A DNA stretch of 64,000 nt from Curvularia clavata (lineage: Eukaryota). The notes under the pieces were generated by a model, which ran no database searches, was not told the DNA's origin, and saw only the letters and a list, made by a program, of their open reading frames with translations. The translations under genes and the position numbers were made by a program. Numbering within the stretch: position 1 is the stretch's first letter; every line of letters begins with the position of its first letter. The DNA is taken from the NCBI GenBank assembly GCA_023920165.1, contig CP089275.1, positions 5,766,001-5,830,000 of the forward strand. The letters are read 5' to 3'. Below, piece by piece: positions 6,657-63,695 of this stretch.

Positions 6657-6709
6657 CTCGAGCTCGGATCACTGATTGTTCTATGAACAACTGATAAGGA
6701 TGATTGTTC

Positions 6710-12800: not shown

Positions 12801-12990
12801 CCTCAAGAACCGAGCTTTTGCCAGAAGATTGATCTCCACAGACAATAATCTGTGGAAGTCCTTTCCCCTCCAGCAACCTTCCGATTCCGAGAGAGCGGAG
12901 CTCATCGATAGCATCGAGGAGTTGACTGTCGTCATTGGAGAGGAGTTGGTGGAGAGTTGTTCCCTCTAGAGCTGATGTGTGCTCTGCCAT
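9829..12990 (-). CDS. Mx-like dynamin-family GTPase (about 966 aa, 5 exons) with C-terminal FG-like low-complexity tail and GLEBS motif
   Basis: G1 LPQIIVCGDQSSGKSS, G3 LVDLPG, G4 TKPD, then stalk and GED regions. Exons 12990-12194, 12123-11049, 10987-10762, 10682-9940 and 9888-9829 are joined by GT-AG introns and total 2901 nt in one frame. Confidence 0.88.
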
Positions 12991-24913: not shown

Positions 24914-24915
24914 TA

Positions 24916-28393: not shown

Positions 28394-29611
28394 ATGTCTT
28401 TCCCTCAACTCAACTACGCCGACTACATCAGCGGAGACCCCATCCGCCGAGAAGCCTTCGCCAAAGCGATTGCACATAGCTTTGAAGTTTATGGGTTCGC
28501 TACGGTTCGTGAACTTTGGCATTCCACCGCACCATGACATGCAGTCTTTTGACATGGATACAACAGGTTGTGAACCATGGGGTGGCAGAGGAGGATATCA
28601 ATCAGGCTTTCAGATATGTATGGACCATAGTATGAGATTGATGATCTTGCAATGTCACTCACAAAGCCCATAGAGCCGCGAATTCTTTGCACTGCCCCAC
28701 GAAGAGAAGATGAAGTCTGAACACCCACCCCAATCAAACCCACATAGGGGCTACAGCTGGGTGGGGCAGGAGAACCTCTCATCCCTGACGCGACGCGACC
28801 GCGGGCTCGCGCCACTCAAAGAAACCAAGGTAACACTCTTCAGCCCGGCGCATTCACTCTACACATGTATACTGAAACATTCGACCAGGAATCATGGGAC
28901 CAAGGCGCCACCGACGACGAGTTGAACCCTAACCTGTGGGCAGCCACTGAATCACTCCCTGGATTCCGTCCTTTCATGGAGAAGTTCTTCAATACGTGCC
29001 ATGAAGCAGAGGAGCGACTCCTACGCGCCGTTGCTGTGGGTCTGGGACTCGATGAGACACACTTCGATGACAAACTGACGGATCGGGTTAACGAGTTCCG
29101 TCTCACGCATTACCCGCCCGTGCGCAAGAGCGACATCAGCCTCGAAATGGGAAGTCAGACGCGCACCTCTGAGCATACGGATTTCGGTACTATTACATTG
29201 CTTTTCCAGGACTCTGTGGGAGGGCTTGAGGTGGAGTCGCACAAAGAGCAGGGTGTTTTCCATCCCATCACGGCAGCTGCGCCGACCATGGTGATCAACA
29301 TTGGTATGTTTCTACTGGAAAATAGATTTATTTTTGGCTGTTTTTGTTGACACTGAGTAGGCGATTCATTGCAGAGGTGGACAAACGACCGCCTTAGATC
29401 AACGGTTCACCGCGTCACCGTTCCCATAAATGGAGATGCAATGGATGACGATATTGTCATTCCGTCGCGTTACTCAGTCGTCTTCTTTGGAAAGCCGAAC
29501 CGAGATGTTAGCTTATATCCCTTCCCAGAATTCTTAAAGGACAAAGAAAGTAAGTATGAAGATATTACAGCAGGCGAATACAACCAGAGGCGCTTGATTC
29601 GGGTCTATTAA
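28394..29611 (+). pseudogene. IPNS-like 2OG-Fe(II) dioxygenase A, with apparent frameshift and splice lesion in exon 1
   Basis: Motifs NPHRGYSWVGQE, HTDFGTITLLFQD, TVHRV and RYSVVFF, and the later introns are canonical. The frame from ATG 28394 stops at 28535-28537 while the conserved VNFGIP segment is in the +1 frame. Confidence 0.7.
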
Positions 29612-31152
29612 GTGTATGTTAGGGCCACGTAGATAGACTTGTAGCTACATTCATCAATCTGCACATTTACTCTACCCAGATGGCTTGCTCACAACATAAA
29701 GCCTCCTGATGATGCAATGTATCCTCCAGGTCCAACATTATAGCTCTGCCATGTCCCTTCCAGCCCTTTAGAGAATATAGCGCATTCGATGATTCACTGC
29801 TAACAAGAGTTTCATATCCAGCCCGGTACTGTATCATTCGGGTACAATATCACAACATGTTCATCGACTTTTAAGACAAAGAAATGTAAGGTAAAGCTAG
29901 ATACAGTTGATAAAGTACAATGATATAACTAGTTGGTAAGAAGATGTCATTACATTGCGTACAGATATTCAATAATCACTATAGCATTTTTGAGCTACGA
30001 ATTTACCAAAGAACGGATGACCGCATTTCGAAATATATATCTCTACATACCCAATCGCAATCTAAGCATCCGGATGACCAGCCCGGATTTCCAACTGCGC
30101 CATCATGTCCACCTGGCCAAACTAACTTAACACAAAATCAACATGCTTCCTCCCAATTCTGGCATATCTTAAAAACACTCAGCTTGGCGTACGCCTTGAA
30201 AAATGTCATACCAATTCACTAGCCCTCATAGATTGCCCGCGTGTCGGCGACGCAGTTTTTTCGATATGGAATGAGCACTCAGACGCCTACGACGCCTTTG
30301 TTTCACCTGAGACACCGAAGTAGTCGTTCCCCGTTTCTGTTAAATAGTTCTGTTCAGAGCCAAGACATCCTAATAGAGCTCTATCGAAGGTCATGTGCGA
30401 TGATTGACGGCAAAGCGTAGTAATATTGAGATGGTAACTCGTTACCATGGAACATGACTGCGACGAAGTTGTCGCAGCTTTCGCATGCTATGCTGCACGA
30501 GAAGGTTGCTCAAGAGGAAGATATCGGATGGCGAATTGGTGGTTGGTAGGCAATGAGAGTATCGCTTTGGATCCGTACAGAGAGATACGTAGGCTCGACT
30601 CCCGTACGAAAGAGGTTTTTGTACAAGGGGTATGTCGGTTCAAGACTTGGAGCTCAGGGTGCGTATAGAGATTACAATGCAAATCTGTGTGGACTGTTTT
30701 GTATGGTTTGGTAACTCAGTGTTCTAGGAGGCAGGGGTTCTCAAAATTGTACATGGTTCCTGACTCTGTAGACTCTCGGCAAAGTGTCAGGCTGGCGAAC
30801 ATGTGTATAATCACTAGAGTGCTGTTGTTAGATATCGCTGCGAAGTCGATCATGAGGTTGAGTGTCAGCTTGTCAGCTTGTTAACTCGTTGTCAGCCACG
30901 CTGACTCTTCAGACTATGCGGCGCAAGGGTAGAAAAAAAAAGTCAGAAAACGCTCTAAGCTCTCTAGAGGAATATGCAATGGAATAGTAAGCTTTGGTGA
31001 CATCACCTATGTGGAGGACAAATCTGTAACTGTTGTGTGGGCACCCAATTTGGCATGGTGAAGTGTGCACAACAAAGAACGGTTTGTCTACTGCACAGCG
31101 CCGCCCAAACCATACCTGTCTTGCCCAGGACAAGAAGTTTTTACAGTTGCCC

Positions 31153-32297
31153 ATGATAGCCTCCGATGTTGAAATGTACACCTGCAATACGTGCTCTTGT
31201 ACCTTCGATTGCAGCGAGCTTCAACGATCGCATATGCTTGCGCCTTGGCAGTGCGATATGTTTCCTCATATATTGTACATGTACTAATGATGTTTGCAGC
31301 ATATATAATGTGAAGCAGCGCATAATCGAGATGCCAGCCTTGACTCTGGAGCAATTCGACGCCCTAGCTCAGCCTGAGGAAGGTTCCAATCATAAGATGA
31401 GCAAGGAAGATTATACGCGAGCTACACCAGAATCCAAGTTTGAATCCGAGGAAGAGAATGAAGTGGACAAACAAACTTCTCCTTCAGAGTGTCTGTTTTG
31501 CAATATCGATTCGTTCAACGTAGAAGACAACGTTGAACACATGCGTTTTACTCACGGACTATATATACCTGAGGCCGACCAACTATCTGACCTGGAGACA
31601 TTCATCGGCTACCTTGCATTCATCATTTACGAATACAACGAGTGTCTTTACTGCGGAGTTGAGAAAAATAGTCTGGAGGCGATCCAGACACATATGAAAG
31701 ACAAGGGCCATTGTATGATCAATTTAGACAGTGAATCAGAGCTTCTGGATTTCTGGGACGTTTCTGGCGACGAAGACAGTGAAAAGCAAAGAGATGTGGA
31801 GAACGAGACCAGTAATGACAATCGATTTCATGTCTCTGCGACTGAAATGCGACTCCCGTCTGGTTCCATCATCACCTCGCGCTCTGATACTGCTCAGCTC
31901 CGTGCGAAGCCAACGCTCACCAAGTCGAGGGTCAAGGCTTCGCAGAAACGGATCAAGAGGGATAGGGTAAAAGCTATAACAAATGGGACCGAGGACAAAC
32001 CTCAAGCACCCGACAACAACCGGTCTATGCGCACACAGCCCGGCAAAGATAGTCGCGTGGCTGTTCGCGGGGAGAGGGGACTTATTGGCTTGCCTGAAGA
32101 ACGAAGGCACGCTTTGATGGTGGCAGAGATCAAGATGAAGAAGCGCGAGCATATCGCCAAATCGGCACAGAGATGGGCTACGGAAAAAGTTGCAAATAAG
32201 CAAAAGTTCTTCAAGGTATGAGATGTTTTCCAGTGATTATCAAGAACATTCACTAACAGCACCGCAGACAGACGTGCCGGGGAGGAAAAATGGCTAA
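31153..32297 (+). CDS. REI1/ZNF622 (pre-60S factor)-like, TRI15-like C2H2 zinc-finger protein (about 347 aa)
   Basis: Exons 31153-31250, 31300-32215 and 32268-32297. Motifs CNTC...HMLAPWHIYNVKQR, CLFC...HMRFTHGLYIP, ECLYC...HMKDKGHCMI and EMRLPSG. Confidence 0.85.
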
Positions 32298-32428
32298 ATA
32301 TTGGATGCGTGTTTTCAACCTCTCACTGTTGATTGGTGATTAGAACATCGCACGATGGCAGAGAATCAACTCCTTTTCCATATTTGATAAATACAACAGT
32401 GTGGAAAAGGTGTAAATTTTGATCAAAG

Positions 32429-34869
32429 TCACTTCTCTGCATCAAAAATGACCTTTTGCACCTCCATCCTTTCAAACTTTGCATACCACTTAGGCGCTTC
32501 CGAAAGAGGTACCACTGTCTCCGTCAGAAAGTCTAACTTGTCTTGACACCTACCCAGGCAATCTAATGCATCCTGAAAAACAGACCTAACAGGACACCGC
32601 CCCATATAAAGTCGTATGTTCTTATCGTACCCTTCATCCCATCTGATTAGCAAACACACAGACTCCTAGATACATGTACTCAACCACTCACCCTGTGAAG
32701 CTGTAAAGGGGAATTCGGCGCTGTGCACCCCGATCGAACTGATAACGCCCCCTGGGCGTACCAAGTCATATGCCAGTTGCAAGGCGGATTTCTGTCCTAC
32801 GAGCTCCAAAACAACGTCTACACCCCTACCATTAGTGACGCAGCGAACATGCTCGAATAAATCTGCTTCATTGGTACTATAGTTCTTGGGCTCAGCGCCC
32901 AAGGAGGCGGCATTTTGCAGGCGGGAGGGCACGGCGTCGATTGCAATGAGGTGATTTGGGTGGAAGGTTCCTGCGGCAGCGATGGCGCAGAGTCCGACAG
33001 GCCCACAGCCTATGACTGCAACTATGCATTTTCGTATCTGAGGGGGTTTGAGCTGTGAGAAACCGTTGCGAACGGCGTAGAACTGGGAGAGCAGTTAATC
33101 AAGGTAGACGGGATTAAGCAAAAGTGGGATTTGATGCGGGTTCACTCACGCCTGTCTTGTAGGGAATGTCAGCTTTTGTTGAACTTCAAAAAAGAAATGG
33201 TGACTTTGGTACTTACGGGAAATATATCTGCCATCAAGATGTTGTTTCGTGGAGCAATACCTGGTGGGCTCTTGAAGGCAGTCGTATCAGCAGATGGTAC
33301 CCTCACTTTGGCACACTATCGTCAGCTTCCCCTCTCGAAGTTCCTAGTAAACTTAGAGATATCTTACCATACTGCGCCTGTACGCCTCCTAAATGTTTTG
33401 TCCCATAAACCATGCATGCTTCGCAGCGAGACGACAAACCATTCTCGCAATAGAAACAAGCCCCACTGCCATCGTTAGTAAAACCCTTTAGAGTTGCAAC
33501 AGAAGGAAAGAATACCTACCAACTGATAGTGAACGGAGATACCACTGTATCACCGACCTGGAACCCGTGAACCTTCTTACCAATCTTTACTACGGTCCCC
33601 GAGAACTCATGACCCATAATGAGATCACTACCGCCATCTTCAGTTCCACGATATAGATGCAAATCACTGCCAAAATCAGATCATCGAATGTCTTTCAAAC
33701 CGGATGATCTGCAGGCTTACCTTCCGCAAAGGCCAGAAAGCTGAACCTTCACAATCATATCGCAATCATCCACAATCATAGGCACGGACCTATACTCGAC
33801 CTCAATCTGCCTCACGCCCTTCAATACCACAGCGCGCATTGTCTCTGGAATCACATGCGCCTGGCCCGACAAGTCCACACCCACACTTGCACCATTCTCC
33901 ACTGTAGCAGCAGGCTTAATAGCACCCAACTTCTTGGCCGCCTCAAACGTGGCATTCACAGCGCGGCCAAACCCCTCCCTCACACCCAACTCTTCCAGAA
34001 GTCTCAACCCCTTCTCGGTAGACCCCCCCACTGTCGCAACCTGTTTAATAATATACTCTGGCGTTTGCCCAGTAACAGCAAGTTTGGCTGTACTCCGCAT
34101 CGAAGCAGCTGCAAACATCCGCGCAGAGTCCTCATCGAATCCCTTCGCGACCAAAGCCAGACTCACGCTCTGTAGTACCGCTGCAAAGAAGGCAGGTCCC
34201 GATGCAGTGACTACAGCTGCTGCTTCAATTTTCTCAGGGGGAACTTCGTGCACAGAACCGACATGTTGGAAGAGTTCACACGCCGTCTGTCGCGCGCTTG
34301 CGCTCCCCCCAGAAACAAGCGTCGCGCTTTCGCCTACCAACGCCGCAACATTCGGCAATGCGCGAACAATGTCGCATTGCGCTTCGCCTTCCTCGCCTCC
34401 CAGTGCGGTGCAAAGGTCGGATTCTGTGACGCCGCCGAGGACTGAAATGAGGGTTTTACCGCAAAGAGCAGCCCGAACGCCTGGTGTGCTTAGAATCTCG
34501 CGGTACTGTGAGGATTTGCAGCCCAGGACAATGGTGTTGGCGGCCTGGATTGTGCTTGCGGTTTCGAGGACATGAAGCTGAAGGTTCGTCGTGGGAGAGG
34601 CGCGCAGGATGGATGAGAGGCGGAGTTTGCTTTCAGCGGTGCGGGTCGTGATGTGGAGGGTATGCGTGTCAAGGAATTTGGCGTATAGAAGGCGTTGAAC
34701 GATCGGGGTGCAGATTTTACCTGTGGAAGATAAGGTTAAGTCGTGTCGTCTTGTATCGTAAATCCACAGGAAAAATATCTTGTTGTCTGTTGGCAAATTG
34801 TTCTTGAAGGAACTCACCGCATCCAATGAATGCCAAGCTCTGCTGTCCGATGGTATCTTGTTGCGCCAT
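32429..34869 (-). CDS. Fusion of pyrroline-5-carboxylate reductase-like domain and Zn-dependent (MDR) alcohol dehydrogenase (about 661 aa, 8 exons)
   Basis: The P5CR part has [33 protein letters not shown] and [12 protein letters not shown]. The ADH part has LCGSDLH, MGHEFSG, CGACFYC..SSRC, ADIFPTG and IGCGPVG. Exons are 34869-34818, 34720-33721, 33666-33520, 33465-33368, 33305-33217, 33155-33150, 33082-32692 and 32631-32429 (1986 nt). Confidence 0.85.
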
Positions 34870-35568
34870 AGTGATGAGGTGCATATCACTGTCTTAATGA
34901 CTACAATCTTTACTGGCCTGCCTTTTGAGGACTTTCAAGAATCATTCTATACTTTGCACCTGCTGACATCGCGCCATCCCTACATTCCAGCATAACTAAC
35001 TCAATCGGATGGATTACCTTTAGTTCTCAAACACGACGTTACATGCATGTAACCAGCTCTCGCACTACGCTCTAATTGAATTTTTGGATTAGAAAGAGAA
35101 TTATAATCAAAGCATGTCATCCTACCTAAGTGAATCGAAAAAATCGGACAGCAATGAACAAGTTGGATAACATCATTGCTAAATACATAAGAGAGACAAA
35201 ATCAAGACTTTATTTTTCTCTACCATTTTCTTCTTAATTTCCTCCACCATCAAATCATGTGGAATGGATATAATGATCCGGCTCAAATGCATAAAAGCCC
35301 ACTGTGGCACGAACTCTTGCCCAAGCCAGCAGTAATGTCAGGACAGAACTGAAAAAGGAAATATCTAATTTTTGATTGCTATCCTAAGATTCTGAGTATC
35401 TATATGTGGGGGGGCGCTGATTTGCAGAAGCCGAGGCATGTTGGGCAGGCGGGGTTTACTACCAAGGCTCGGAGACGTTCGTGTTTCGGCTAACAGGTGG
35501 TAGCCAGCAAAAAATCGTGTCAGCGCCACCAGGTCGATGAAGAAAGCTAGGCATCCTCATGACAATGC

Positions 35569-36648
35569 TCAATATGCAGTCAGCAACCTCTTTTTTTGGA
35601 ATTCCAAAGCTGTCATGGTTTCTTTTGCATCTACTGGGTGATCTCCCTGGAACGGCTCCAAAGGCATTACATAGGCTTGACGCGCAGCCTTGCAAAAGTA
35701 CGCGATCGAGTAGCGCTCAGGGACGATGCCGTTACCCTCTGAATCAAGCTTTGTGTCTTTTGGACTCGTAACCCTGTGCAAGCCAGCTGGTAGGGCTTTG
35801 GCAGTCCAGTGTTCCATGGTCTCAGAAATATTGACGATGAGGTCCGTCTTGTCAACCTGCTCCACCTGTATGAATTCCTTTGGACGCTCGCGATCCTCAA
35901 ACTCGAGACCACCGACACAGTCTGTGAACAGGAGTGTGATGACGCCTAAATCATAATGAGGCCATATGCGTTCGACCTTTCTGTCCTCGAGAGCCTTGGC
36001 TGACATCGCTGGGTAGTGGTTGATACGGAACTCGCTCGCGTTAGGTAGGCACTGCTGACGAAAAGTTCCCTCGGGGACGCCCATGGCTTCTTCCAACGCT
36101 TGCATGATCTCGAGGCTCAGCTTCTCGCATATCTGGAAGAAGTCCTCGAGGTGCGCACGAAAGCCAGGCAGTGTGGCTTCGTCGGGCCATCTGCTTTCGA
36201 ACATGTTGTCTTCTGGCGCTCCAAAATCAAAGTGCTCGCGTGCATCTTTGAGATCTTCGGCTACTGAGTGGCCCATAAGTTTTCCGTATAGAGTTGATGT
36301 CTTTTCAGCACCGAGCGTGCTCCATCCACGCTGTGGGCGGGGTCCGGGAGGGTTCAATACTTTGCGCTTCTCCTCGAGCGGAAGGGCGAAGAACCTCTTA
36401 CCCTAGATAGCTTGTTAGTTTCCTATGATTTTCCAGTGTATTGTTTCTCTTGTTTTGTTTGAAGAATCGCGCGGGAAACTCACCCATTCAAAGGCTTCCT
36501 CGACTCTTTGTGAATCGATGCCGTGATTCCTGATCCTTGCGAAACCATTTTTACTTAGCTGCTCCAGCAGGCTCTTGGAATATTGTAACCGTTCCTCAGG
36601 TGTTCCAGTTTGGAATTTAGAGGCATCAAGAAGTATGGATGCGACCAT
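35569..36648 (-). CDS. IPNS-like 2OG-Fe(II) dioxygenase B (332 aa, 2 exons)
   Basis: Motifs GFARIRNHGI, PQRGWS, PHYDLGVITLLF, GLHRV and RYSIAYF. Intron at 36403-36483. Confidence 0.92.
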
Positions 36649-37922
36649 GGTGTTGATTAAAGACTGCGATGAGACTATTCTGCTAATTGATGCACAGCTA
36701 TGTTCAAAATTGTGTTCTCACTTGCAAACATTTCGACCTTTCATATAGATGAAAATCAGTGATGGGTTAAAGCCAGACTTAGCAATCGTAATCGCTTAAC
36801 GTATGGTGTCATCAGTTGCTGACAGTCGATCGGAGCGCACGTCTTATGCATTGCCTCGATATTCCATCACAATCCTGGCTGTCTCTTCGAAACATTCTCA
36901 GTTAGGTAGAGTGGAATCGTATTACTTGGCCCAGATACGTATATACAAATAATCAAAATGTTTAGCACTATCACGAGATGCGCCAAGACGTTACTCGACA
37001 AGCTTGTCAAGCAACTCGTTGTATGCGGGTTGGAAGATAGCGCTTCACCCCGATGAATAGCTATGAATGACGTCTTCTGATCGGTGCCAAGATCAAGAGA
37101 AGAGATTATAGAGAAGAACACCTAGTCTAATCAGAAAGTCATGTTATCTACGGATGTATTTGCTAGTCATACTTCCATGAAGACCTCAAAAACTTGAATT
37201 ACCTTTCAAACTTGCCCTCAGAGAGCGTTTGAAAGCCTCTCTTAGTATGATTACAAATAATAGAAATCGAATCTGACTGTAACAACAGCAGGAAATCTAC
37301 ACTGTTTAAGTCCCTGGCACATGCCCTAAGACGCACGACGCTCTCAAAAACACAACCCGCGGCATATGGTGCACCCAATTCACTAATATTCCTACGTACT
37401 ACGGCATAAAAGTGGGAGATTGTCAACAACAGTAACTAACGACAGGATCAGAATGAATCGTGCAGATCTTTTTGGTTACAGAGAGGGCTATAGTCTTTGT
37501 ACTACAGAGGTGTAGATAGTTTCTTGAGGTCTATGATAGATAAAGACTTGAGAATATTCTGAATGGAGCCAGTGTTTTATCCACTCGTTTGGAGCAGAGT
37601 ATGAAAATGTCAATAGGATATATTATCTATTTCTGTTTTTATCTCCCACAAGTGGAGATTAGCCCAAAATATACATTGTATGAATAAGCGGCAGGCCGCC
37701 CCGTAGCCTACTAAAAATTGAAAGTGAAGATAAATAATACTATGTATCTAAGCAGACATTCGAAACCAAAACCTTTGGCTCTGGATCTTAGGCACTAAAA
37801 TTATTAAAGCTCTTATCTCGAAAAGTTAGTATCAGTCTAGATAGAACTAAGTTATAAAATAATGATGCCTATCTTATTAGACGCCTAATGATAGATGATA
37901 AAATCTATGCTTGATAACTATA

Positions 37923-39777
37923 ACGTGTTGGATAAGCGAGTGAGCCAGGCAAGCGAGTGAGCCACCTCACCAACTTCGCGCATCTATACAAGCGTGTAGC
38001 TCCACCATAGTATAATAATATAGATATATATTAATATAGCAGATTAAGCAGTATCTATAGTATCATTTTTACACGTACGCGAATTATGGCCAGTCTCTCT
38101 ACACCTGCTACAGCGCGTAAAAGCCCAGCGGCTAACACCTGATCGCTCTCCTCCCTGACGCTCTTCATAAGCAATTTGCTCATCAGCCTCGCGTTAAGCA
38201 ATAATATCCTCGCCAGCTCCCTTCGTAAGCACTCCTTGCTTCTATATCCGCTTTCTTTTACGCTCTCTACGCTTTGACGCTGCCTCATTAACTCTCTCAA
38301 GGTTGGCGATCCGCTCGCGCATTAGCTCAGCTAAGAGCATCATTATCTCTGCCCCCTTCTTAAGCTGGCCAATCGCCGCAATAATCGACGCTAGTAATAA
38401 GCTTTTGTGCCGTCGAACACGATCACTTATTAGCGTTGATTAAGCTTCAAGCTCGCGTACGTTGCCTGGCGTACAGGCCTGCCAGAGAGCTTCTGCGAGA
38501 GCAGCTAGAGGAGTAGACGTACGTAGCTGCACGTCAAGCTTTGATAGAACAGTGTCTGGCTGGAGAAGAACAAGGCCTGCACCTCGAAAAGCTGAGCAGA
38601 TATTGGCTGACGTAAACGATTGATTAAAGGCTGCCTTAAATGCTGGCAGAAACTCGAGCTTAGTGATATGGTTGATGTAGTTGCGTATTAGACTCTCCAC
38701 CTCACGGCTATACGCACGCTTCAATGGCGAGAAGCAGCCAACGTCAAGAGGCTGGAGCAGGTGAGACGAGTAAAGCGGCATACAGAGCGTATAGATATTG
38801 TTCTCCTTACAGAGCTCTTAGAACTCAAGTGACTGGTGGCTCTCATGGCCGTCAAGAATAAACAGCCGGCGTGCCCCAACAACCTTGCCATCTGTATGCT
38901 TAACAAAGTGCTTTAGCCACTCAACTCCTAGCTCGTTGGTCGTCCAGCCGTTATCGCTGACTACGATCGCCCAGTCGCGTGGGATCTCTGCCTCCTCGTA
39001 CCAGGCAGATAGGTGATACTTGCCAGTAAAGATCAGAAACGGCGGGATAGACCAGCCGGCTGCGTTAATCCCAGCGATAAATGTCACCCACTCGCGACCA
39101 CCTGGCTGGATAGCCTTTGGCCGAGCTCTTCTTTCTGACGCTGTAACGACAAGCTGAGTAGTAATCTTGCCCATTAAGAAGCCAGCTTCGTCGAAGTTGT
39201 AGACGTCGTCGTCGCAGATGCCGTACTTGGCCTTTATCTACTCTACAAGCTCAAACTAGCTCTTGATTAAGACTGGATCTTCACATAGAGCTCTCTGTCT
39301 ATCGTACGCCCGATTAAAGCGCGTTGTAAGACTGTCTGTACGCTTAACAAAGTTGGCTGGCCACTTCTGCCCAACCTGGCCAGCGCCGCGCGCAGCCAGC
39401 AGCTTATCAGCCATATCGCGCACAGCAGCGTACGCGGGCGCAAATCCACGTGAATCGAGATTGAGTATATGATCAACTATCATCTCCTCTTCTAGCTTAG
39501 TTAGCTTCTTTGAGTTGGGCTGACAATCGCGTCGGGTAGGGCAACCAGCGCGTCGGCGGTGGAGTGTAGCTCGCGAGATATTGAACGTCTTAGCAGCGCA
39601 TCTCTCGGTTTCAATTTGCTTTGTATTAAGAGCTGAAATCGCAAGATACATATCAGCCTCACAAGAGACCTTAGAAGCTTGTTGGGGGGACGCCATAGTT
39701 GATTGAAGTTGAGGCGTTGTGGAAAGTTGGTGAGGTGGCTCACTCGCTTGCCTGGCTCACTCGCTTATCCAACACGT
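37923..39777 (-). mobile_element. Second Fot1/pogo-family DNA transposon, RIP-inactivated
   Basis: 54-bp TIRs (37923-37976, 39724-39777) and TA duplication. Transposase fragments (YNFDEAGF, LDGHESH, HLLQPLDVGCF) are broken by TAA/TAG stops. The TIR sequence differs from the 24.9 kb element. Confidence 0.95.
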
Positions 39778-41374
39778 TAGTTATAATAAATTGATATAGT
39801 ATAGAGTAGTAGAATATCTTACTAATGTCTACAAATCTTCTGTCTTTATAAACTTATTAATAGTATTTTCTAACTAATTTCAATCTCTTATATATCGGAC
39901 AACTTTCTCTAAGTTTTCTTAATTTAACTGTATTACTAAACTGTATGAATCCATCTAGATAGTAAAGGATTACAGTTATTCTTATACTATATACTATATC
40001 TGTAACGGAGTTTCATGTCTATATAGGAACGAGCTGTAGGTTTAATATCCAAGTCGATGGGCATATCCATCTTCTCATCCTCCTGGAACAAAATTTCTAC
40101 AACTTGGAACTCGAGCAACTGGGTGTGATAGCCGTATGCTACCTTACTGGTCTATCTTGTGTAAAATATAATCGTTAATTCAATCTACGAAAATGTAATG
40201 AGATGTGATGGAAAACTCATTCCTCGATGAAAATCAATAGCTCTTTGCTCATCCCCTAGTAGAAATCCTCTAGCGCATTGGTAAGAGGTAAAGAGAGGTG
40301 CATCGGCACTGGCATAAACTGTCCAGCTTTCCTGTCGCAGGCTTCACAAGTGGCAACAAGGTCGCATCTAGGGCGTGTTTCAACTAACATTTTGAACGAC
40401 ATGATATGGTATTCTCTTCAAGGATCAATTGCAAGTTGTTTAGCTTCAAAAACAGGTTCTAGCTCCACTTCCCAACTGCACACATTTTCGTTGTTTCTCT
40501 GTGTGTGTTTTTCCTCGTTGCAATGCGATCATTCGGACCAATCAAGTGGGGCATGTCAGCAAACATGCTGACACCCGCTGTCACTACCTGTCAGCAAGTT
40601 GTTGACATAAGCATGTCAGCCATGCTGACCGTGTACTGTAGATGGAATACGGGATAGCTACAGTACATTGCAGGTCAGCCAGTGTCATCATAACCCATCG
40701 AAGATCATGGTGATTTTGAAACATCGCGCTGAGCTATGCCAAAAAGGTTTCTTTACTCTATTACATCATCACACCGAAACTCTTCATATGTTCTTAACTC
40801 ACTACTATCATATGTTGAGACTCAAAAATATTGTAAGACGTACTTGGAAAAAATAAACACAGAACTCTTTCTAAATTTAATATCATCTTTGAAGGATATA
40901 TAGATAGATTTAATATATGGAAATGAAACAAACTTAGTCTAAATGTCTATTTCTAGGCCAAATTTATAGTAAATATTGACTATGAATCTTGTTTGTGATG
41001 CATCTAGTATCAAAACTCGGAGTTAGAATATAGAGGTAGTATCTATACTTCATCTTTAGGGTACGTACTTGGCGGACACAGTCGAAGCCAGGGTGCGGTA
41101 GTATTCCTAGGTCAAAGACGACAATAGACAACCAGTGCTACTAGTCTTAGACTGCACTGAGTCGTTGGAGTAGTTCAATGCGAGCGGTCGAAATGGCAAA
41201 ATCGACTTAGCGTGGTAGATAGAAGACTTAACGGCAGATGGGGAGACGCATACCTGGACGACAGTGAGACTATAGGCCAAGGGGCGTCGTGAGGATATAC
41301 ATTGATGTAAACGAGATGCTACTTCTCACGTGATAGAACTCTCGCATCTATCTATCCTTTTGTTCCACTTCATT

Positions 41375-47927: not shown

Positions 47928-47977
<50 letters not shown>

Positions 47978-53900: not shown

Positions 53901-56900
53901 CTTACTACGACGAAAACTGGAAAAAGGTTGTTACCTTGTCGTCAGAATTTGTCCAGATGCTGCCTGCAGATTCGGGCCTCCCCGACCATCTCTATCATCA
54001 CGACAACTATTTCTGTGTCATGTTTACCTCCGGTAGCACGGGAAAACCAAAGGCAATCATTCACAGCCACGCTGGGTTATACGCCAGTTACGAAGCGTTT
54101 GGCTCGGCCCTTGTCCTGAACTCAGAAACCCGCGTTTTCCAGTTTGCTTCGAACTCCTTCGATCCTGCCATTATCGACCCCTTTTCTACATTAATGCATG
54201 GTGGATGCGTATGCATACCTTCAGAGAAAGAGCGTATCGATGACTTTTATGGCGCTTTCCATAGGCTGCAAGCAAATTGGGTGCATCTGACTCCATCTTT
54301 GGGACGCAGTTTGAATCCTGATAAGCTCCCCGGACTGAAAAATATTCTTCTAGGAGGTGAGCCGCTTATGCAGACGGAGCTGAACGTCTGGTCTGAGAAG
54401 GCTCATTTGATGTCTGCATACGGGCCGGCCGAATCCTCGTTATGCATCTCCGGTACACTCAAAAAAGGGGTGCGCTCGCCACCCAACTTGGGCTGGCCTG
54501 TTGCGTGTAGGGCCTGGGTCGTTGAAGTCTCAGACTATACAAAGCTAGCGCCTGTCGGAATGATTGGTCACCTCATTATAGAAGGACCAGTGAACGCCCT
54601 TTGCTACATGAACGATGCCGAGAAAACTGCTGCTGGTTTTATATCACCTCAACACGTCTGGATGCCCGAAGTCGCATCCCCAGTCAATCAACGAATGTTC
54701 CGAACGGGTGATCTAGTCAGATATACTCCGAATGGCACTGTCGAGTTTGTGGAAAGACGAGACACACAGATCAAACTTCGAGGTCAGCGCATCGAGCTCA
54801 GCGAAGTGGAGTTCCATCTCAAAGAAGCATTGAAGCAAAGCGGCTATGACGTAGAGAGCATTGTTGCCAAGATAACACCTTCCGAGTCCAGCTCACTTCT
54901 AGCCGCCTTCATTGAGAGTCATGAACTGTCAACCGGCTGTCAAGAGAAGAATGATGATATCATCGGCCAACTTCTGGAGTCAGTGACTGTACACATGAAA
55001 TCAAAGCTGGTAGCTTACAAGATCCCAACCGTGCTGATACCGGTGGCAACTATACCTCGCACCCCGTCTCAGAAGATTGACCGTAAAGAGTTGCTAAGAA
55101 TAGCTTCCAAGTTATCAGAAAAGGAAATCGCCTCACGCACTTGCTCGAGCCGCGTTGGACGAGCCCCGATCACCGAAGCGGAAAAGCACATTTGTTCGCT
55201 CTTTGCGCGTGTCCTGGAGCTTCGTGAAGAACAAGTCTTTGCAGATGACATGTTCTCACGACTGGGCGGCGATTCCATCCAAGGCATGCGATTAGTAGCT
55301 TTGGCAAGAGAAGAAGGAGTCGTTATAACTGTATCTCAATTATTTTCCTCATCCAGTGTAACGGAGCTGGCGAGTCAGCTTCCTTCTCCTGCGGCCACCT
55401 TCGTCGAGCACCAGCAACCTGCTTCACGTCAGTCCGCATTGTTCCATCTTGCAGCGGACCAGTGCAATGTCAGCACAAATTGCATCGAAGATGTATACCC
55501 GTGCACACCACTTCAAGAAGGACTCATGTCGCTATCTCTTGAGAAAGACAATGCCTACGTCGCTCATAATGTCTTCCAACTGCCACCTGACGTGGAGGTT
55601 GAACGATTGAAACAGGCTTGGGCTGAAGTGTCGGCCAGGAATCCCATTTTGCGCATGCGAATGATTTCCCTGCAAGGCAGATCGCTCCTAGTCGTCGTGC
55701 AGGAAGAGTTCTCCTGGCGGACTGGAAATTCTCTTAAAGACGGTATAGATGAAGAGAAACGGCTTACAATGGGGCTCGGCTCACCCCTCAATCACTTCTG
55801 CCTGGTTGGCTCTGACGAGGGAAATTTCCTACTTTGGACCTCCCATCACTCCACATACGATGGCTGGTCAATGAAACTCTTAATTGATCAAGTTGGAGCT
55901 GCCTATCACGGCCGCACACTCCCTATGAGTACGGCTTTCAGAAACTTTGCCTTGGATCTCGAATCACGTCATTTAGATTCCAGTGCTTTCTGGGCCCGTA
56001 TGACGAACGTCAGCCCTATCCAGACATTCCCCGAGAAGCCTTTACCAGGCGTTCGCCCAAAGGCCAATCTGACAGCAAGCCGGCAGTTCAATCTAAACAG
56101 GAGAACAGGCTCACCGATAACGACTTCGGTCATTTTGCGCGCAGCATGGGCACTCACTCTACGCCAACATGTAAGTTTATCTTGAAACTCACATCTCATT
56201 TGATTAAAATCTTTCTGACATGCTAACCCACACCTTCAGTGCGACGCGGGTGCTGTCTCCTTTGGTACAGTCTCCTTTGGGCGGAACAGCGATTTCCCTG
56301 GCATTGAAGGGATCGTCGGGCCCACATTCTGCACATACCCTGTCATCACACAGGTAGAACCAAACCTCTCCGTTCTCTCCTTCCTTGAGGCGCAACAGGC
56401 AGCATGGTTAGAGGCTCTTCCACATGAACACTTTGGTCTCCAGAATATCGCAAAATTGAACAATTTCTGTAAAGAGGCTTGCGATTTCCAAAACCTCCTA
56501 CTCATACAGCCAAAGCAACTGCGGGAGGCAGAGTCCACGGACGTCATGGGTACCTGGTTGCAATCGACAGAATATTCGGAATTTTTCTCCTATCCGCTCA
56601 CCATCGAATGTTCACTGAGCGAGACCGGTTGCGATGTCCTTGCTGGTTGGGATGAAGATCTCATCGAGAAGAATGTCGTGGAGAATATGCTGTCACAATT
56701 CGATAGTATGGTCCAACAGCTGTTGACCGAAGAACCCACACAAACTATTGGGCAGCTCGACATGCTCGGTGCCAGTGGCCTTGAGCAAATTAGGAGCTGG
56801 AACAAGTTGTGTATTGAGTTACAAGCGCCTTACACCGAGGAGAACGACATGCCTGTGCACATACGCATAGCAAAACGAGCGCAGGAAAATCCACATGCCG

Positions 56901-59900
56901 AGGCGGTGTGTGCAAGAGACGCCAGTCTTACTTATGCAGAAGTGCAAAGATATTCAGATGCATTGGCTGCGTATCTTGTTCTTCAAGGAGTTGGCCCAGA
57001 GGTCCTTGTCCCCTTTTGCTTCGAAAAGTCGGCATGGACTGTTGTCACCATGCTGGCTATCTCGAAAGCTGGAGGAGCGTTTGTCCCGCTAGAAGGATCA
57101 TACCCAGTGAGTTGGCTCACTAATGTAATCGAACAGATAAGCGCACATATAGTGGTCACATCACCGGAAATGGCACATGTGTGCTCTCAGTTGCCCGCCA
57201 AAACAGTGGAAGTATCACGCAAGTTCCTTGATGCTTTACCAGAAAGCACTGTACAGCAAAATGTCAAATTGGCGGATGCGGCATACGTGATATTTACTTC
57301 TGGTAGTACGGGAACACCCAAGGGTGTAATCATGGAGCATGGCGCCTTTAGCCGTGGCGTCACTGACCATGGCTACATCCTAAGATTGGGGGCAGCATCG
57401 CGTGCCTTGAACTTTGCTTCGGATGTCTTCGACGCAAGGTGAGGCTACTCCAACTTTATGAATTGTCTTTGAATCTAACGCAAAACAGTATCACTGAAAC
57501 CATTACAACCTTAGTGCATGGAGGCTGCGTGTGCGTACCATCAGCAGCAGAACGAACTGGTGACCTCGTATCTGCCATGACGCGAATGAAGGTCAACTGG
57601 GCATTCTTCACAACCTCGTTCCTTTACACATTAAGTTCAGAAAACTTACCACATCTGGAAACCATAGTGGTTGGTGGCGAGCCTATAAGTGCCGAGATAT
57701 TCCAGGCATGGGCTGACAAGGTATGTCTCATTGAGGGGTACGGTCCAGCAGAGTGCTGCATCTATTCCACAGCTGCGGTGAATGTAAAACCTTCTGATAG
57801 TCCCACGAATATCGGACGAGCAACGTCTGGACATTGCTGGATTGTTGATGCACAGGATCACAACCAGCTGGCTAGTATAGGTAGCGTCGGAGAGCTCCTG
57901 ATCGAGGCTCCCACTCTCGCCCGCGGATACCTCAACGATCCCACCAAGACTGCGGCTGTTTTCGTTGAGGACTTGGCATGGGCAGCTGCTACAGGGACCG
58001 TACCTCGGCGCATGTATAAGACAGGCGACCTTGCTAAGTACAACCATGACGGAACCATAGAGTTTGTTGGTCGGAAAGACACACAGGTGAAGCTGCGTGG
58101 TCAACGCGTTGAACTAACACTCATTGAGCATCATGTCCGCAAGGTTTTACCGGACTTAGTGCATGTTGCCGTTGAGGTTATCACAACGGCTAGTGATAAG
58201 GTACGTTCTCTGATACATGTTACAGTGCATCTCGCTGATTGTGTGCCCCGATTTCTAGATACAACTGCTCGCTGCTTTTTTGGAATTCAAGGATTCTACC
58301 ACCGATATGCATCTATCTGGAGAGCTTCGATCTACGTTGATCGAGGCACAACGCAACTTGAGCAAGCAGATTCCACGACATATGATTCCTTCTCTCTTCC
58401 TACCCCTTGCGGCAATGCCTCTATCTGCCTCGGGAAAGATCAATCGCCGAGAACTTCGGAACAAAGGTGCAAATCTCTCCAAACAGCAGATTGCCTTGTT
58501 TTCCTTAACTGCTAATGACAAGCGGCCCCCTTCGACAAAGAACGAGTCCACCTTACAACTCTTTTGGGCAGATCTTCTGCGCATACCAATAGATTCAATT
58601 GGTATCGATGATGGTTTCTACCAACTAGGTGGAGACTCCATTCTTGCCATGCGCTTGGCTACACTGGCCAGAGAACAAGGTCTCGATTTGAATGTGCAGA
58701 CGATTCTCAAAAGCTCCTCATTAAGCGAGATGGCCTCTCTTGCACATGCAATCCACGAACACGAGGAATATAGCATCAAGCCCTTCGCGCTTGTAGATGG
58801 GTGTGAAAAACTGCAAGAGCAACTGGAAACACTACACAACATCGATGGCACCCTAATCGAAGACGCATACGCATGCACCCCACTTCAAGAAGGCCTTGTG
58901 GCACTATCGGCCAGATATTCTGGTACCTATGTCGCTCAATTCGTGTTCAAGCTTCATCCTTTCATCGATCTGGCTCGGTTCAAACAGTGCTGGGAATCAT
59001 TGGTCTGTCGGCACGCCATTCTTCGAACAGTTATTGCGAATGTAGATGGTACATCGCTGCAGCTGGTTCAAAAACCGTTCTCAATTAGCTGGCTAGCTCA
59101 CTTCAGTCTCAGTGAATATCTGGATGAAGACCGAGCTTCTCCAATGGACACGATGCAACATCTTGCCAGGTACGGCATCGTGAGTGACCGAGATGGTCAA
59201 ATCTTCTTCGTATGGACAGCGCATCATGCTATATACGACGGATGGACTGTCGATTTACTTTTCTCTGAGTTGAAACAGATGTACAATGGGACGCTCATAA
59301 CTTCTCTGCCTCCTGTACAACCGTTTGCCAAAGTTGCAAAATACGTCAGTAGCCTTGACGCGGACAACAGTGCTCAATACTGGAGAGATCAGCTCACGGA
59401 TAAAGACCATGCTGTATTCCCAGATACTTCGTTATCGAAAGAAGATCCCATTGCTAACGCGACCTATACACACACGATTACGATGTCACGAACACACAAT
59501 TCGACAGTTGCAATGTCGACTCTGATAAGATCAGCCTGCGCTGTTGTACTTTCTAGCTATGCGAACTCCAAGGATATAGTATTTGGGGAAATTTTATCTG
59601 GTAGGGATATTCCCGTTTCTGGAGTGGCTAGCATCGCAGGACCGCTCATCACAACGGTTCCCGTTTCCGTCTCCTTGGACTTTGAACAACGCACCTCCAG
59701 GTTCCTTAAGCAAATGCAGGTACAAGCAGCAGACATGATCCCTCACCAGTATTTTGGGCTGCAGAAGATTCGCCAGCTCGGCCCAGAGTGTAGCAGCGCT
59801 AGCAACTTCACAACGTTGCTCGTCATTCAGCCCGCCAACGAGTCTGCTGATGTCGTCGAGATGTGGGAGCAGGAAGAAGCGGCGACAGCCACCTCGGGGT

Positions 59901-62900
59901 TCTTAAATTATCCGCTTGTACTCGAAGCCGCGCTTACCAGCTCCGGATTGAAACTGAATATCCTTCATGCCACGTCCATCCTATCGAGGGAGCAAGTCGA
60001 CCGCATAGCTCACCAATTTGAACATGTGCTACGACAACTGAGTGATGGAGAGCGATCTGAAGCCACTCTGGCAGACACTGACGTGTTTTCCTTGCGCGAC
60101 AAGCAAGATCTATCAGCCTGGAACGGCGATCAACTTTCGACATTTTCAACTACCATTCACTCCATGGTTGGCAATCGCGTAGCTTTACAAGGAGATTCCA
60201 TCGCCGTATACGCCAAACAAACAAGCCTATCTTTCAACGAGCTTGACGTTCTATCAACCAAACTCATGCATCACCTTGCGAAACTGGGTGTCAAACGTGG
60301 AGAGCGAGTCCCGCTTCTGTTCAGAAAATCACCATGGATGATCGTTGCTGCCTTGGCTGTGCTTAAGATTGGGGCAGCATACATCCCACTGGACCCCAAG
60401 TTCCCGAAAAGCCGCAACGATTATGTTGTGAGAAAAGTTTCCGCAAAGGTCCTGCTTGTGGGAGATGGCTGTGAGGGTTTCAGGGATGATGAGGTGTTGG
60501 TCAATCAAAACACGTGCGAAGGCTACGAAATTGAGAATGCTGTGTGGGCACTACGCGAAGGTGACCCATCCGATGCAGCATGTATAATCTTTACATCTGG
60601 AACGACTGGCCAACCCAAGGGTGTCATCCTTTCTCACGCTTCACTTTGCAGCAGCATCCGCAGTATCGTGTCCAGGATGAACATGAACAGGCAATCCAGG
60701 GTTCTCCAGTTTGCGGGATATATTTTCGACGCTAGTATCTTGGAGATCTGGGGCACGCTCATGTGTGGCGCCACCGTTTGCATTCCTGATGAGACGGATC
60801 GACTCAACCGCCTCGCCGGCGTCATCAACGAGATGGATGTCAATTGGATGTTTCTAACACCCACCGTAGCCTCAATGCTGGCTCCATATGACGTTCCGAC
60901 TTTACGCACACTCGTATTGGGCGGTGAAAAGTTGACAAAGGAAGTGATTGACAGATGGAGTACTCACGTTCATCTCATCAACGGCTACGGCCCAGCAGAG
61001 ACATCCATCTTCACGGCGTGTACTGGCCCATTGTCGCCACTGTCTAATCCCGAAAACATTGGGCGCGGCGTGGGCAGTCGCATCTGGATCGTTGATCCAA
61101 AGGACCCTGCTCGTTTGACCCCACCTGGTGGCGTTGGAGAAATCTTAGTAGAAGGGCCTGGAGTATCAAATGGCTACGTGGGCGAGCCCGAGAAAACAGC
61201 TGCTGTCTTCATCGAACGTCCCAGCTGGCACAAAAATATGATGCTCGATCTAGTCTCGCCTGCATGCCGCATGTACAGGACGGGAGACTTGGGGCATTTT
61301 GACTCGGAGGGAAACATTCATATTGTCGGGCGAAGGGATAATCAGGTGAAGATACACGGACAGCGTGTGGAGCTAGGCGATGTCGAAATGGCGTTGTTGG
61401 CTTCATTACCACAAGGCTGGAGGGCGATTGCAGGAGAGAGAGAAGCAAGAATCACGGCGTTCATCTTGAGAGGTGGGGAAGAGACGGGAGATGGTGCGCG
61501 ACTAGTGTCAGGGACGGAAGAGACCAAGAAACTGGCGTTGTCATTGCGCCGCAAAGTGGGAACTCTACTGCCTGCCTACATGATTCCATCGGAGTTTGTC
61601 CTTGTGAGCCCAGTTCCATTGACGGCGGGCGGTAAGGTAGACAGGCAAGCCGTGTTGAGACTTGGAGACCGTATTGAGTCGCAACATCTTTTGGATTACG
61701 ACGAAGCAATTGAAGCACCTCGAACCGCCAACGAGAGTAAGTATCACATGTCTTATATCTTCTAGATGCTAATTACTGACTGGTGCTATAGGAATGCTCC
61801 AGTGCATATGGGCCTCTGTCCTTCAAGTGAAGGAAGAAGAGATTGGCATCCATTCCAATTTCATCCACCTCGGTGCGGATTCTATTGCTGCTATGAGACT
61901 TGTGCAAGCCGTGCGAGCTGCCGGACATGCGCTCAGTGTCCAAGAAATCTTTACGTCACCGTTACTGTGCGACATGGCGCAACGTGTAGAGTCCGGGGAG
62001 AAGGACAAGGAGAAGCAGAAGCAGCAAACCGAGTCTCAAGACAATGAGGATGATCAGGCCACATGTCTCAAGGGTCTATACGCAACAGCAGAGATCGCGG
62101 CGGACAATGTGGCCAAAGTATGTGCGGCCACCGACTACCAATCCTACGCGCTAGCTAGCGGCCACCTGCGTACCAGAGGCTACAACAACTACCTTGTCTA
62201 CGACATTGCCGGCCCACTGGACGTAGCGCGTCTTCATCGGGCTTGCCAGCAGGTAGTTGACCAGCACGAAATCCTACGGACGGTATTTGTAGTGCGCGAA
62301 CGCCAGCTGGTCCAAGTGGTGTTGAAGCATATGTCTGCCCGCATCGAATATCCGTCTCGAGTGGAGGGGCTGAGCACACTGATCAGCGACGACGGCAACG
62401 AAGAGATGAAGCTTGCCAGCAGCCCTGTCAAGTTTATGATTATGCGACAAGCCGGCGACCGAAATCGCCTGGTGATGCGCATCTCGCACGCGCAGTACGA
62501 CGGCATAAGCTTGCCCATCTTGCTAGATGACCTTTCGGCGGCGTATGCAGGCCGCAGGATGCACAGTAGCCTGCCTTTCTCATCCTTCGTGCGCAGTGAG
62601 TGCGAGCGTCAGCAGCTTGACGGTTCTGATGGTGCTGCTGCTGCTCAGCAGCACTGGAAGGAATGCCTTGCAGGGGCGCGCATGGCGGAAATTGTCGTGC
62701 ACAAAGGGCCATCGTATCGCTACGCCATGGATGCTACCAAAACCCACACCGTCTCTCCGCACATGCAGGGACTGCCCTATACGTTTGCAACGGTGCTGCA
62801 AACAGCATGGGCGCTGGTGCTGGCCGAGCTTGGCGGGCGCAACGATGTCGTCTTTGGTTACATTGCGTCGGGCCGAAGCACGCTTACGGGCGGCACCGTC

Positions 62901-63695
62901 GTGGGGCCGTGTATGAACATCCTTCCTATGCGCATCAGGGTCCCCGTCTCTGCACATGATGCGCCGCTGGATACGGAACCTTTCCTCTCGCAGGTGCAGT
63001 CGCAATACCTGGCCAACATCCCCTTTGAGCACTACGGCTTCCGCCATGTCATCGAGGCCTGCACCGACTGGCCGCCGTGGACACGCTTCTCGTCGGTCGT
63101 GCAGCACAACAACCTGCCCGCCTGGCCAGCGTCAAGCGCCAAGCAGCAACAGCCCGACGGCACCGTCTGGCATTTCTCATCATACACGCCCCCGCATGAT
63201 GCCGCTGACGTGTGGGTGAGTTCGACGCCATCGCCAACCGGACGTGGCTTCACTGTCAACCTCGACTATAGCCACCAGGCCATGCCTGATGGCGTCGCCT
63301 CCACTATGCTCGAGCTGCTGTGTCGCTACATTGAGACACTCACGAGTGCTGCGGACCCACCAGCGCCTCGCCGTGCTCCTCTCCAAGTGCTCCCCACACT
63401 GCCGCTCGAGCACAAGACGTGGACGCCGCCAGACTCGCCTCCTGTCAACGAGGGCCCTTCAGACCCCTACAAGCTCGTCAACACGGTCTGGGACACGGTG
63501 CTGGGTGTCGACAGCGCTATCGATGGCAACACACCCTTCTTCGAAATCTGGGGCGACGCGATACTGGCCGCCGCCTGCCTCAGCGAGCAGTACCGTCGCA
63601 TGGGTCTGGCCGTTTCAACGGAAAATGTCATCGACCGCCCCACCAAGCGGTTACAGGTGCTGATGCTCGGAGGCGAAATTGACCACGTAGCCTGA
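46918..63695 (+). CDS. Five-module NRPS: A-T-C-A-T-C-A-T-C-A-T-C-A-T-CT-(T-like), about 5454 aa
   Basis: Five A domains (SG(S/T)TGxPK; YG(P/V)xE; RTGD/KTGD). T motifs are YGDS, GGDS, GGDS, GGDS and GADS. C motifs are HHSIYDG, HHALYDG, HHSTYDG and HHAIYDG, with terminal SHAQYDG. Introns at 47893-48016, 51117-51173, 56171-56239, 57439-57488, 58201-58258 and 61737-61791 give 16365 nt in frame. Confidence 0.95.
47921..47983. repeat. (CA)n microsatellite in NRPS intron 1
   Basis: About 30 CA units with interruptions, lying between the GTAAGT donor at 47893 and the TAG acceptor at 48016. Confidence 0.95.

Follow-up and report, generated by a model that had tools for sequence, protein, structure and literature searches.

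Methylprolines give peptide drugs and toxins such as griselimycin, the echinocandins, the destruxins and bottromycin rigidity and metabolic stability, and to our knowledge only a few routes to these residues have been described. For nostopeptolide, NosE carries out an alcohol oxidation and NosF, a homologue of pyrroline-5-carboxylate reductase (P5CR), reduces the imine. The fungal enzymes closest to those considered here act on isoleucine. As reported in PMC8233208, UcsF converts L-isoleucine to (4S,5S)-4-methyl-delta1-pyrroline-5-carboxylate (4-methyl-P5C), the precursor of (3S)-methylproline, and DetxE, which is 42% identical to UcsF, performs the same L-isoleucine reaction in vitro and in vivo. 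The same source states that DetxE alone also leaves 5-hydroxy-isoleucine and that ordinary P5CRs turn 4-methyl-P5C into (3S)-methyl-L-proline. It also quotes the GriE/GriF/GriH route to the 4-methylproline of griselimycin, where hydroxylation is followed by the alcohol dehydrogenase (ADH) step of GriF and then by imine reduction. Here we analysed a window of 64,000 nt from Curvularia clavata (contig CP089275.1, positions 5,766,001 to 5,830,000), in which genes for a UcsF homologue, an ADH and a P5CR are found beside a five-module nonribosomal peptide synthetase (NRPS).

The region between 28394 and 63695 of the window is an orphan, uncharacterised C. clavata biosynthetic gene cluster of six genes. 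They encode two 2-oxoglutarate (2OG) dioxygenases, which we call A and E, a REI1-like protein, a fusion of P5CR and ADH, an ABCC transporter and the NRPS, and all six are intact. The start of the region is exactly the ATG of dioxygenase A, its last position is the final base of the NRPS stop codon, and a further 305 bp separate this stop from the right edge of the window. For the cluster as a whole we tentatively propose, at slightly less than an even chance, that isoleucine is converted to 3-methylproline, which enters an all-L pentapeptide that is cyclised by a terminal CT domain and exported by the ABCC pump.

Dioxygenase E (332 aa; 35569-36648, minus strand; exons 36648-36484 and 36402-35569) is a homologue of UcsF and DetxE and carries the Pfam domains DIOX_N and 2OG-FeII_Oxy. 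It aligned to UcsF (PDB 9KTP) with an E-value of 1.2e-77 and a score of 264 bits, and the alignment reaches the last residue of both proteins. Counted on the HMMER match line, 139 of the 275 aligned query residues are identical (∼50%). The next family, thymine 7-hydroxylase (thymine dioxygenase), followed with an E-value of 5.5e-29. In 2OG dioxygenases the HxD...H motif forms the iron triad and RxS is the 2OG-binding motif; both are intact in dioxygenase E, and the segments WPHYDLG, GLHRVT and RYSIAYF align to identical residues in UcsF. As gene E is nearer to UcsF than DetxE is, oxidation of isoleucine at its delta position is the most economical reading, and on this homology 3-methylproline from isoleucine appears better supported than 4-methylproline from leucine.

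The fusion gene (661 aa; 32429-34869, minus strand) was modelled from Pfam matches, RNA contigs and the Lasiodiplodia orthologue and has eight exons (34869-34818, 34720-33721, 33666-33520, 33465-33368, 33305-33217, 33155-33150, 33082-32692 and 32631-32429). We detected P5CR_dimer (1.7e-21) and ADH_zinc_N (4.2e-18) in the Pfam scan, and the step from the P5CR dimerisation domain to the start of the zinc ADH is an in-frame junction inside exon 2. The database copy of the fusion holds PF03807 and PF14748 (P5CR) together with PF08240 and PF00107 (ADH) in one protein. Exon 2 is 100% identical to the public entry P0121, named 'alcohol dehydrogenase [Curvularia clavata]', and over the full length the complete model and the Lasiodiplodia theobromae fusion P0122 share 50.8% identity. 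With the Lasiodiplodia orthologue as the query, the ADH half matched the solved zinc ADHs 4CPD (2e-57) and 5YLN (1e-49). The translation contains GGST(E)KG, the substrate loop of P5CRs, as well as the GHE motif and the four-Cys structural zinc site of ADHs. DetxE, an enzyme of the UcsF type, leaves 5-hydroxy-isoleucine, and this gives the ADH domain a role: by analogy it probably oxidises 5-hydroxy-isoleucine, after which the P5CR domain would reduce the cyclic imine.

The gene models were compared with contigs of four public runs (X1-X4; two organisms, two studies) taken from Logan and aligned to 28300-48200. None of the runs is recorded as RNA, but their contigs carry GT..AG joints and so derive from spliced RNA. 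For the fusion gene, five introns and a 6-nt micro-exon were seen in X1, X2 and X4, which come from two studies. The micro-exon (33155-33150, minus strand) reads ACAGGC, encodes Thr-Gly and lies between introns of 61 and 67 nt; we had foreseen it from the Lasiodiplodia segment ADIFPTGFF, and its reverse complement GCCTGT lies between the joints 33082 and 33217 in three runs. The public model P0121 (603 aa) is mis-spliced with respect to the RNA contigs, which support the product of 661 aa: it lacks the micro-exon, a 17-residue segment and ∼40 residues near the C-terminus. The spliced form of intron 1 is taken from P0121 and from the Lasiodiplodia N-terminus. One X4 contig (34469-34909) is unspliced across this intron, possibly through intron retention or DNA carry-over. 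For dioxygenase A all four introns were present as GT..AG joints in a spliced contig of 1128 nt from X1, and the same run contained the joint of the single dioxygenase E intron and both joints of the REI1-like gene. The ABCC gene is represented by transcript contigs of 4.3-4.4 kb in X2-X4, in which 6 of ∼4070 letters differ. The spliced and transcript contigs thus indicate that the tailoring genes and the transporter are transcribed. The stretch 46892-48200 at the start of the NRPS had nearly no contig cover in X1-X4, which counts neither for nor against its expression. Since genes cannot be ranked by the depth of Logan contigs and the alignment took in no more than the first 1.3 kb of the NRPS, we draw no conclusion about co-expression.

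The NRPS (5454 aa; 46918-63695, plus strand) has the architecture A-T-(C-A-T)4-CT according to Pfam, the splice model and the core motifs, where A, T and C stand for adenylation, thiolation and condensation domains. Its seven exons are 46918-47892, 48017-51116, 51174-56170, 56240-57438, 57489-58200, 58259-61736 and 61792-63695. From the ATG at 46918 to the stop codon at 63693-63695 the splice model gives one open frame with five GT..AG introns. A sixth intron of 57 nt (51117-51173), in-frame and free of stops, is probable: it lies inside the second A domain, where read-through would add 19 residues just ahead of the A5 core motif, this insert is absent from the Diplodia orthologue and the signals GTAAGT...CTAAT...CAG are in place. 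The intron model of this gene is based on the sequence, that is, on the open frame, the splice signals and the orthologue alignment. A (CA)n microsatellite occupies 47920-47985 within intron 1.

Across the exon open reading frames (ORFs) of the NRPS we counted five AMP-binding, five PP-binding and five Condensation domains in Pfam as well as five A3 core motifs, and by the positions of the motifs the domains follow each other as A-T-C-A-T-C-A-T-C-A-T-C-A-T-C. HHxxxDG is found in each of the four internal C domains. The terminal one reads SHAQYDG, and the motif SHxxxD is typical of CT domains. Its best solved match was the CT domain of TqaA with an E-value of 1.6e-30, compared to 1.6e-20 for the best canonical C domain. 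Exon 6 (in the numbering of the Pfam scan) contains PP-binding and then Condensation, followed by the stop codon, with neither a thioesterase (TE) nor a reductase (R) domain. A terminal domain of the CT type that would release the product is supported by these features. A motif search of the translation found no epimerisation (E) or methyltransferase (MT) motif and no S-adenosylmethionine motif, and with modules spaced at ∼1,100 aa there is no space for domains of either kind. We extracted the 10-residue codes of the A domains with the anchor positions of GrsA and obtained DTGCCGIIWK for A1, DMENTGAVTK for A2, DPIHLGALCK for A3, DATFVGGIYK for A4 and DALFVGGIFK for A5. A comparison of codes with a protein labelled dtxS1 by its source was dropped, as its codes were implausible.

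Dioxygenase A (327 aa; 28394-29611, plus strand; exons 28394-28504, 28567-28617, 28674-28829, 28889-29303 and 29361-29611) shows 2OG-FeII_Oxy on two exon ORFs and has kept the HxD...H triad and RxS in its translation. For its 138-aa exon the best solved match was the thymine dioxygenase 5C3O (5e-26), and UcsF was matched at 1.3e-11. The two dioxygenases of the cluster share 108 of 328 residues (33%). A probable role of dioxygenase A is to introduce another hydroxyl group or to produce a second modified residue. The REI1/REH1-family C2H2 zinc-finger gene (340 aa; 31174-32297, plus strand; exons 31174-31250, 31300-32215 and 32268-32297) encodes zf-C2H2_2 (2.1e-28) and an N-terminal C2H2 finger. 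All six of its solved matches are REI1, REH1 or ZNF622 (1e-16 to 2e-14), and in the Atlas the closest cluster is a zf-C2H2_2 family of 334 aa whose 381 members come mostly from Ascomycota.

The ABCC transporter of the MRP/YCF1 type (1548 aa; 41375-46021, minus strand) has a single coding exon. Two ABC_membrane and two ABC_tran domains give it a (TMD-NBD)2 architecture, and ABCC2 and YCF1 were the best solved matches with E-values from 1e-179 to 1e-172. Transporter and NRPS are divergently transcribed and share an upstream region of 896 bp. Past the stop codon of the ABCC gene, a single transcript contig (40839-45368) shows two spliced introns (41004-41068 and 41250-41296); as there is no ORF downstream of the stop, both are introns of the 3' untranslated region. 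The 5' part of the gene (45000-46000) has a GC content of 67-74% compared to 45-55% around it and encodes an alanine-rich N-terminal membrane region and acidic low-complexity stretches. A first-pass annotation of the window had named a five-module NRPS ending in CT, an ABCC exporter, two 2OG dioxygenases, a P5CR-ADH fusion and a REI1-like gene, and all of these identifications held up: the NRPS through its 5/5/5 Pfam domains, the terminal SHAQYDG and the TqaA match, the exporter through its ORF and best matches, the dioxygenases through Pfam domains and conserved motifs in both, the fusion through its single open frame and spliced transcripts and the REI1-like gene through its zinc-finger domain and solved matches.

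We then compared the upstream regions of the cluster genes. The 8-mer TGCTGACA is common to those of dioxygenase A, the fusion gene, dioxygenase E and the ABCC/NRPS pair. We counted nine copies in the window, where 3.18 were expected; none of 100 dinucleotide shuffles reached this number, and all nine sites fall within 28210-55475. Its core, GCTGACA/TGTCAGC, has 21 sites in the window when both strands are counted. Two thirds of them (14 of 21) lie in the non-coding DNA from 27800 to 46917 (8,579 bp) and 7 in the other 55.4 kb, which corresponds to densities of 1.63/kb in the cluster intergenic DNA and 0.13/kb elsewhere (about 13-fold enrichment). In 2000 first-order Markov simulations the mean was 1.43 and the maximum 7, compared to the 14 observed. 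GCTGACA is the commonest heptamer of the cluster intergenic DNA, and its cluster sites span 27864-46468. Every gene is covered: there are two sites upstream of dioxygenase A, three upstream of the REI1-like gene, two upstream of the fusion gene, one upstream of dioxygenase E and one in the region shared by the ABCC/NRPS pair. The remaining sites comprise one in a transposon remnant (described below) and four in a dense array at 40540-40630, which combines these four exact copies with degenerate partners and includes two inverted pairs. Inverted pairs of the form TGTCA(G/T)C-N-GCTGAC occur at five sites (30890, 36807, 40554, 40614 and 46449) and look like a candidate site for a dimeric regulator. 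The shared element lends in-silico support to a single regulon that would include the REI1-like gene.

Relatives of the NRPS and the fusion were searched separately. NRPS relatives with more than 50% identity were found, among the matches listed, only in Diplodia corticola, L. theobromae, L. hormozganensis and two further assemblies. Four orthologues of the Botryosphaeriaceae type are colinear with the C. clavata NRPS at 52.6-53.9% identity, and all other relatives listed show 38% or less. The labels 'vlmS' and 'easA' given to orthologues by the sources name no known product. The first NRPS search covered proteins of 4758-5000 aa. The second used residues 3300-4992 of the Diplodia protein with a word prefilter, and the C. 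clavata NRPS was itself missing from its list, so that relatives in, for example, other Curvularia or Bipolaris can be missed. For the fusion, 8000 word-sharing candidates were scored and 2 fusions were found; in the HMMER search the ADH half dominates the best 150 matches and only P0245 spans the domain junction. Because of the length window, the word prefilters and the ADH-dominated ranking the rarity of the NRPS family and of the fusion is unproven, and for the ADH-P5CR fusion we regard it as suggestive.

The sole other full-length P5CR-ADH fusion among the matches listed is KAF4537156 of L. theobromae. It lies on the same contig of 260,352 bp as the NRPS entries KAF4537164/65, eight accession numbers apart. 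Two fusion fragments, P0245 and P0395, are on contigs of 117,668 and 113,404 bp, and these are the sizes of the contigs with the NRPS orthologues P0244 and P0124. This is indirect evidence that the linkage of fusion and NRPS has been kept in another order of Dothideomycetes. Judged by the source names of the relatives and by the open-access full-text literature, the inability of the first-pass annotation to match the region to a characterised cluster is supported: no characterised cluster or product was matched, and the best relatives of the core synthetase (∼53%) are uncharacterised. Within that literature, subscription journals being outside its scope, we found no paper on the cluster and no methylproline-containing fungal cyclic pentapeptide. 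A cyclic pentapeptide from Botryosphaeriales (PMC9088075) was rejected as the product: it contains D-Leu and no proline, a misfit for an NRPS without an E domain.

We infer all substrates and products, the imino-acid module and the cyclisation in the following scheme. Dioxygenase E would hydroxylate the delta-methyl group of free L-isoleucine to give 5-hydroxy-L-isoleucine and perhaps carry it on to the aldehyde. The zinc-ADH domain of the fusion would oxidise 5-hydroxy-isoleucine to the aldehyde, spontaneous ring closure would yield 4-methyl-P5C, and the P5CR domain would reduce this imine to (2S,3S)-3-methylproline. One of the five A domains would load the imino acid and the NRPS would build a pentapeptide, which is expected to be all-L because the enzyme lacks epimerisation and N-methylation domains. 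The CT domain would then release the peptide through head-to-tail macrocyclisation, the ABCC pump would export it, and an imino acid would ease the cyclisation of such a short all-L peptide. Several observations weigh against this scheme. The substrate choice of the UcsF family has been shown for two enzymes only, so leucine or another substrate is possible, and neither UcsF nor DetxE needs an ADH to arrive at the imine, so that the ADH domain may have another function. The five A-domain codes match no assignable code and tie no module to the imino acid, and at several positions the codes of Lasiodiplodia are not those of C. clavata. A transposon remnant separates the tailoring genes from the transporter/NRPS pair. 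The linkage in other genomes was read from accession order and equal contig sizes, and of the genes beside the NRPS the fusion alone was traced there. Furthermore the cluster has no known product, and within the window it contains no transcription factor gene or other regulator gene that we could see.

The first-pass annotation had modelled the built-in cyclic imino-acid route on the one to 4-methylproline, in which L-leucine is hydroxylated at C5 as by EcdK or GriE, the ADH acts as NosE or GriF and the P5CR as NosF, and the second dioxygenase possibly hydroxylates the product. The gene set fits the same three steps, with ADH and P5CR corresponding to the NosE/NosF pairing, dioxygenase A could be the leucine hydroxylase, and the substrates accepted by the UcsF family have hardly been explored. 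However, UcsF, which oxidises isoleucine, is the sole characterised protein closely related to either dioxygenase. A leucine hydroxylase is named neither among the 36 solved chains that match dioxygenase E (E-value ≤ 0.001) nor among the 44 solved matches of dioxygenase A; a structure of GriE is expected to be in the PDB. The built-in dioxygenase, ADH and P5CR genes stand, whereas the leucine origin is less well supported than the isoleucine origin suggested by the close UcsF homology of dioxygenase E and appears unlikely. The ring residue could also be pipecolate or another imino acid that is not a methylproline. In this case the P5CR would reduce a lysine-derived piperideine carboxylate and the dioxygenases would hydroxylate the ring or other residues. 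P5CR-like reductases are tied to pipecolate supply in fungal peptide clusters, for example APS3 for apicidin, and the ADH could oxidise a 6-hydroxy amino acid. Against this, the ORFs scanned between 26 and 64 kb include no aminotransferase, saccharopine-type or lysine cyclodeaminase gene, and the UcsF homology suggests a branched-chain substrate, which makes a pipecolate-type residue very unlikely.

Two further questions concern the unity of the cluster and the roles of single genes. The tailoring genes and the NRPS/ABCC pair may be neighbours that belong to separate pathways, in which case the methylproline would serve another synthetase or stay a free metabolite, or dioxygenase A and the REI1-like gene may lie outside the cluster. 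The transposon remnant at 38058-39756 does divide the two halves, the REI1-like gene comes from a widespread 334-aa ascomycete family and dioxygenase A is nearest to a pyrimidine-salvage enzyme. Nevertheless the fusion stays with the NRPS orthologue in Lasiodiplodia and two further assemblies, and GCTGACA is common to all upstream regions and scarce elsewhere (7 sites in 55.4 kb), so that a separation of this kind seems quite improbable. The fusion may be redox-neutral and act as a hydrogen-borrowing cyclase: the ADH would pass hydride from 5-hydroxy-isoleucine to NAD(P)+ and the P5CR would hand it back to the cyclic imine. In this way a single polypeptide would make 3-methylproline from the hydroxy amino acid with cofactor in catalytic amounts. 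Separately, the GCTGACA element in its promoter suggests that the REI1-like gene may be a co-regulated extra 60S-maturation factor which protects the producer, and the target of the peptide would then be ribosome biogenesis. We give these assignments an outside chance.

The cluster is bordered on the left by repeats and then by unrelated genes. Between the left flank and the cluster lies a stop-free ORF of 588 aa for a pogo/Tc5 transposase (24883-26646), and degenerate fragments of a long terminal repeat retroelement with an integrase zinc-binding domain and reverse transcriptase were found at 17402-19489 (about 17-20 kb). Further left we observed a gene for a dynamin-family GTPase (9832-13290, minus strand), which is unrelated to the cluster, and a UbiD-family decarboxylase gene (4824-6491, minus strand) divergent from a flavoprotein/prenyl-FMN synthase-like gene (6888-7733, plus strand), with which it forms a pair. 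We take the layout of this pair (4824-7733) to be that of fungal FDC1/PAD1 phenylacrylic-acid decarboxylase pairs. Inside the cluster, the degenerate Tc5/pogo remnant (38058-39756, minus strand) shows DDE_1 and HTH_Tnp_Tc5 in Pfam on three stop-broken ORF fragments and is no part of the pathway. Multi-copy transcripts match the region 38058-40047 at 90-95%, with differences that are mostly transitions and resemble repeat-induced point mutation. At 40047 the contigs of the second organism cease to match, a sign that strains may differ in the insertion or in its border. The genes of the window have short GT..AG introns and a GC content of 42-63%, and these features identify the window as fungal DNA.

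If the proposed route is correct, the cluster would offer a compact cassette of three activities from isoleucine to 3-methylproline for engineered hosts. The cluster also points to a putative, unassigned five-residue peptide common to a Curvularia leaf pathogen and to trunk pathogens of the Botryosphaeriaceae. The candidate GCTGACA cis-element could serve as a handle for turning the cluster on.

Each part of the cluster is of a known kind: a UcsF-type hydroxylase, an ADH, a P5CR, an NRPS ending in CT and an ABCC pump. The novelty lies in how they are combined, with a fusion of ADH and P5CR encoded next to a UcsF homologue and an NRPS family without an assigned product. On the synthetase side, the locus resembles fungal macrocyclising NRPSs that end in CT, for which the CT domain of TqaA is the structural reference, and among them five-module synthetases of cyclic pentapeptides such as malformin synthetase: its terminal domain shows SHxxxDG and best matches TqaA CT, and it has five A domains and neither TE nor R. 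A protein labelled malformin synthetase by its source is 28% identical over 64% of NRPS exon 2, and one labelled dtxS1 is 33-34% identical to the NRPS. Another cyclic non-ribosomal peptide of the same species is KK-1, which according to PMC10512319 and PMC5900794 has 10 residues, five of them N-methylated. As the NRPS described here has five modules and no methyltransferase domain, its cluster differs from the KK-1 cluster thus described.

On the side of the amino acid, dioxygenase E is ∼50% identical over its whole length to UcsF of the UCS1025A pathway (Acremonium sp.), where methylproline feeds a hybrid of polyketide synthase and NRPS, whereas here the synthetase is a five-module NRPS. The P5CR step from 4-methyl-P5C to (3S)-methylproline is the same as that described with DetxE of the destruxin cluster in Beauveria felina and SX-P5CR1/2 (PMC8233208). 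The reductases of B. felina are housekeeping P5CRs and no ADH takes part, whereas here the cluster itself codes for the reductase, in one protein with a zinc ADH. The bacterial Gri and Nos routes to 4-methylproline, the former as quoted there, follow the same logic of 2OG hydroxylase, zinc ADH and imine reductase, a likeness that we draw from the domains. They differ in using separate proteins and leucine as the substrate, and GriH is F420-dependent; in C. clavata a single fungal polypeptide combines the last two activities, and the hydroxylase is of the UcsF family. Judged by its sequence, the cassette would be a hybrid in which the fungal UcsF/P5CR route meets the bacterial routes of hydroxylase, ADH and reductase.

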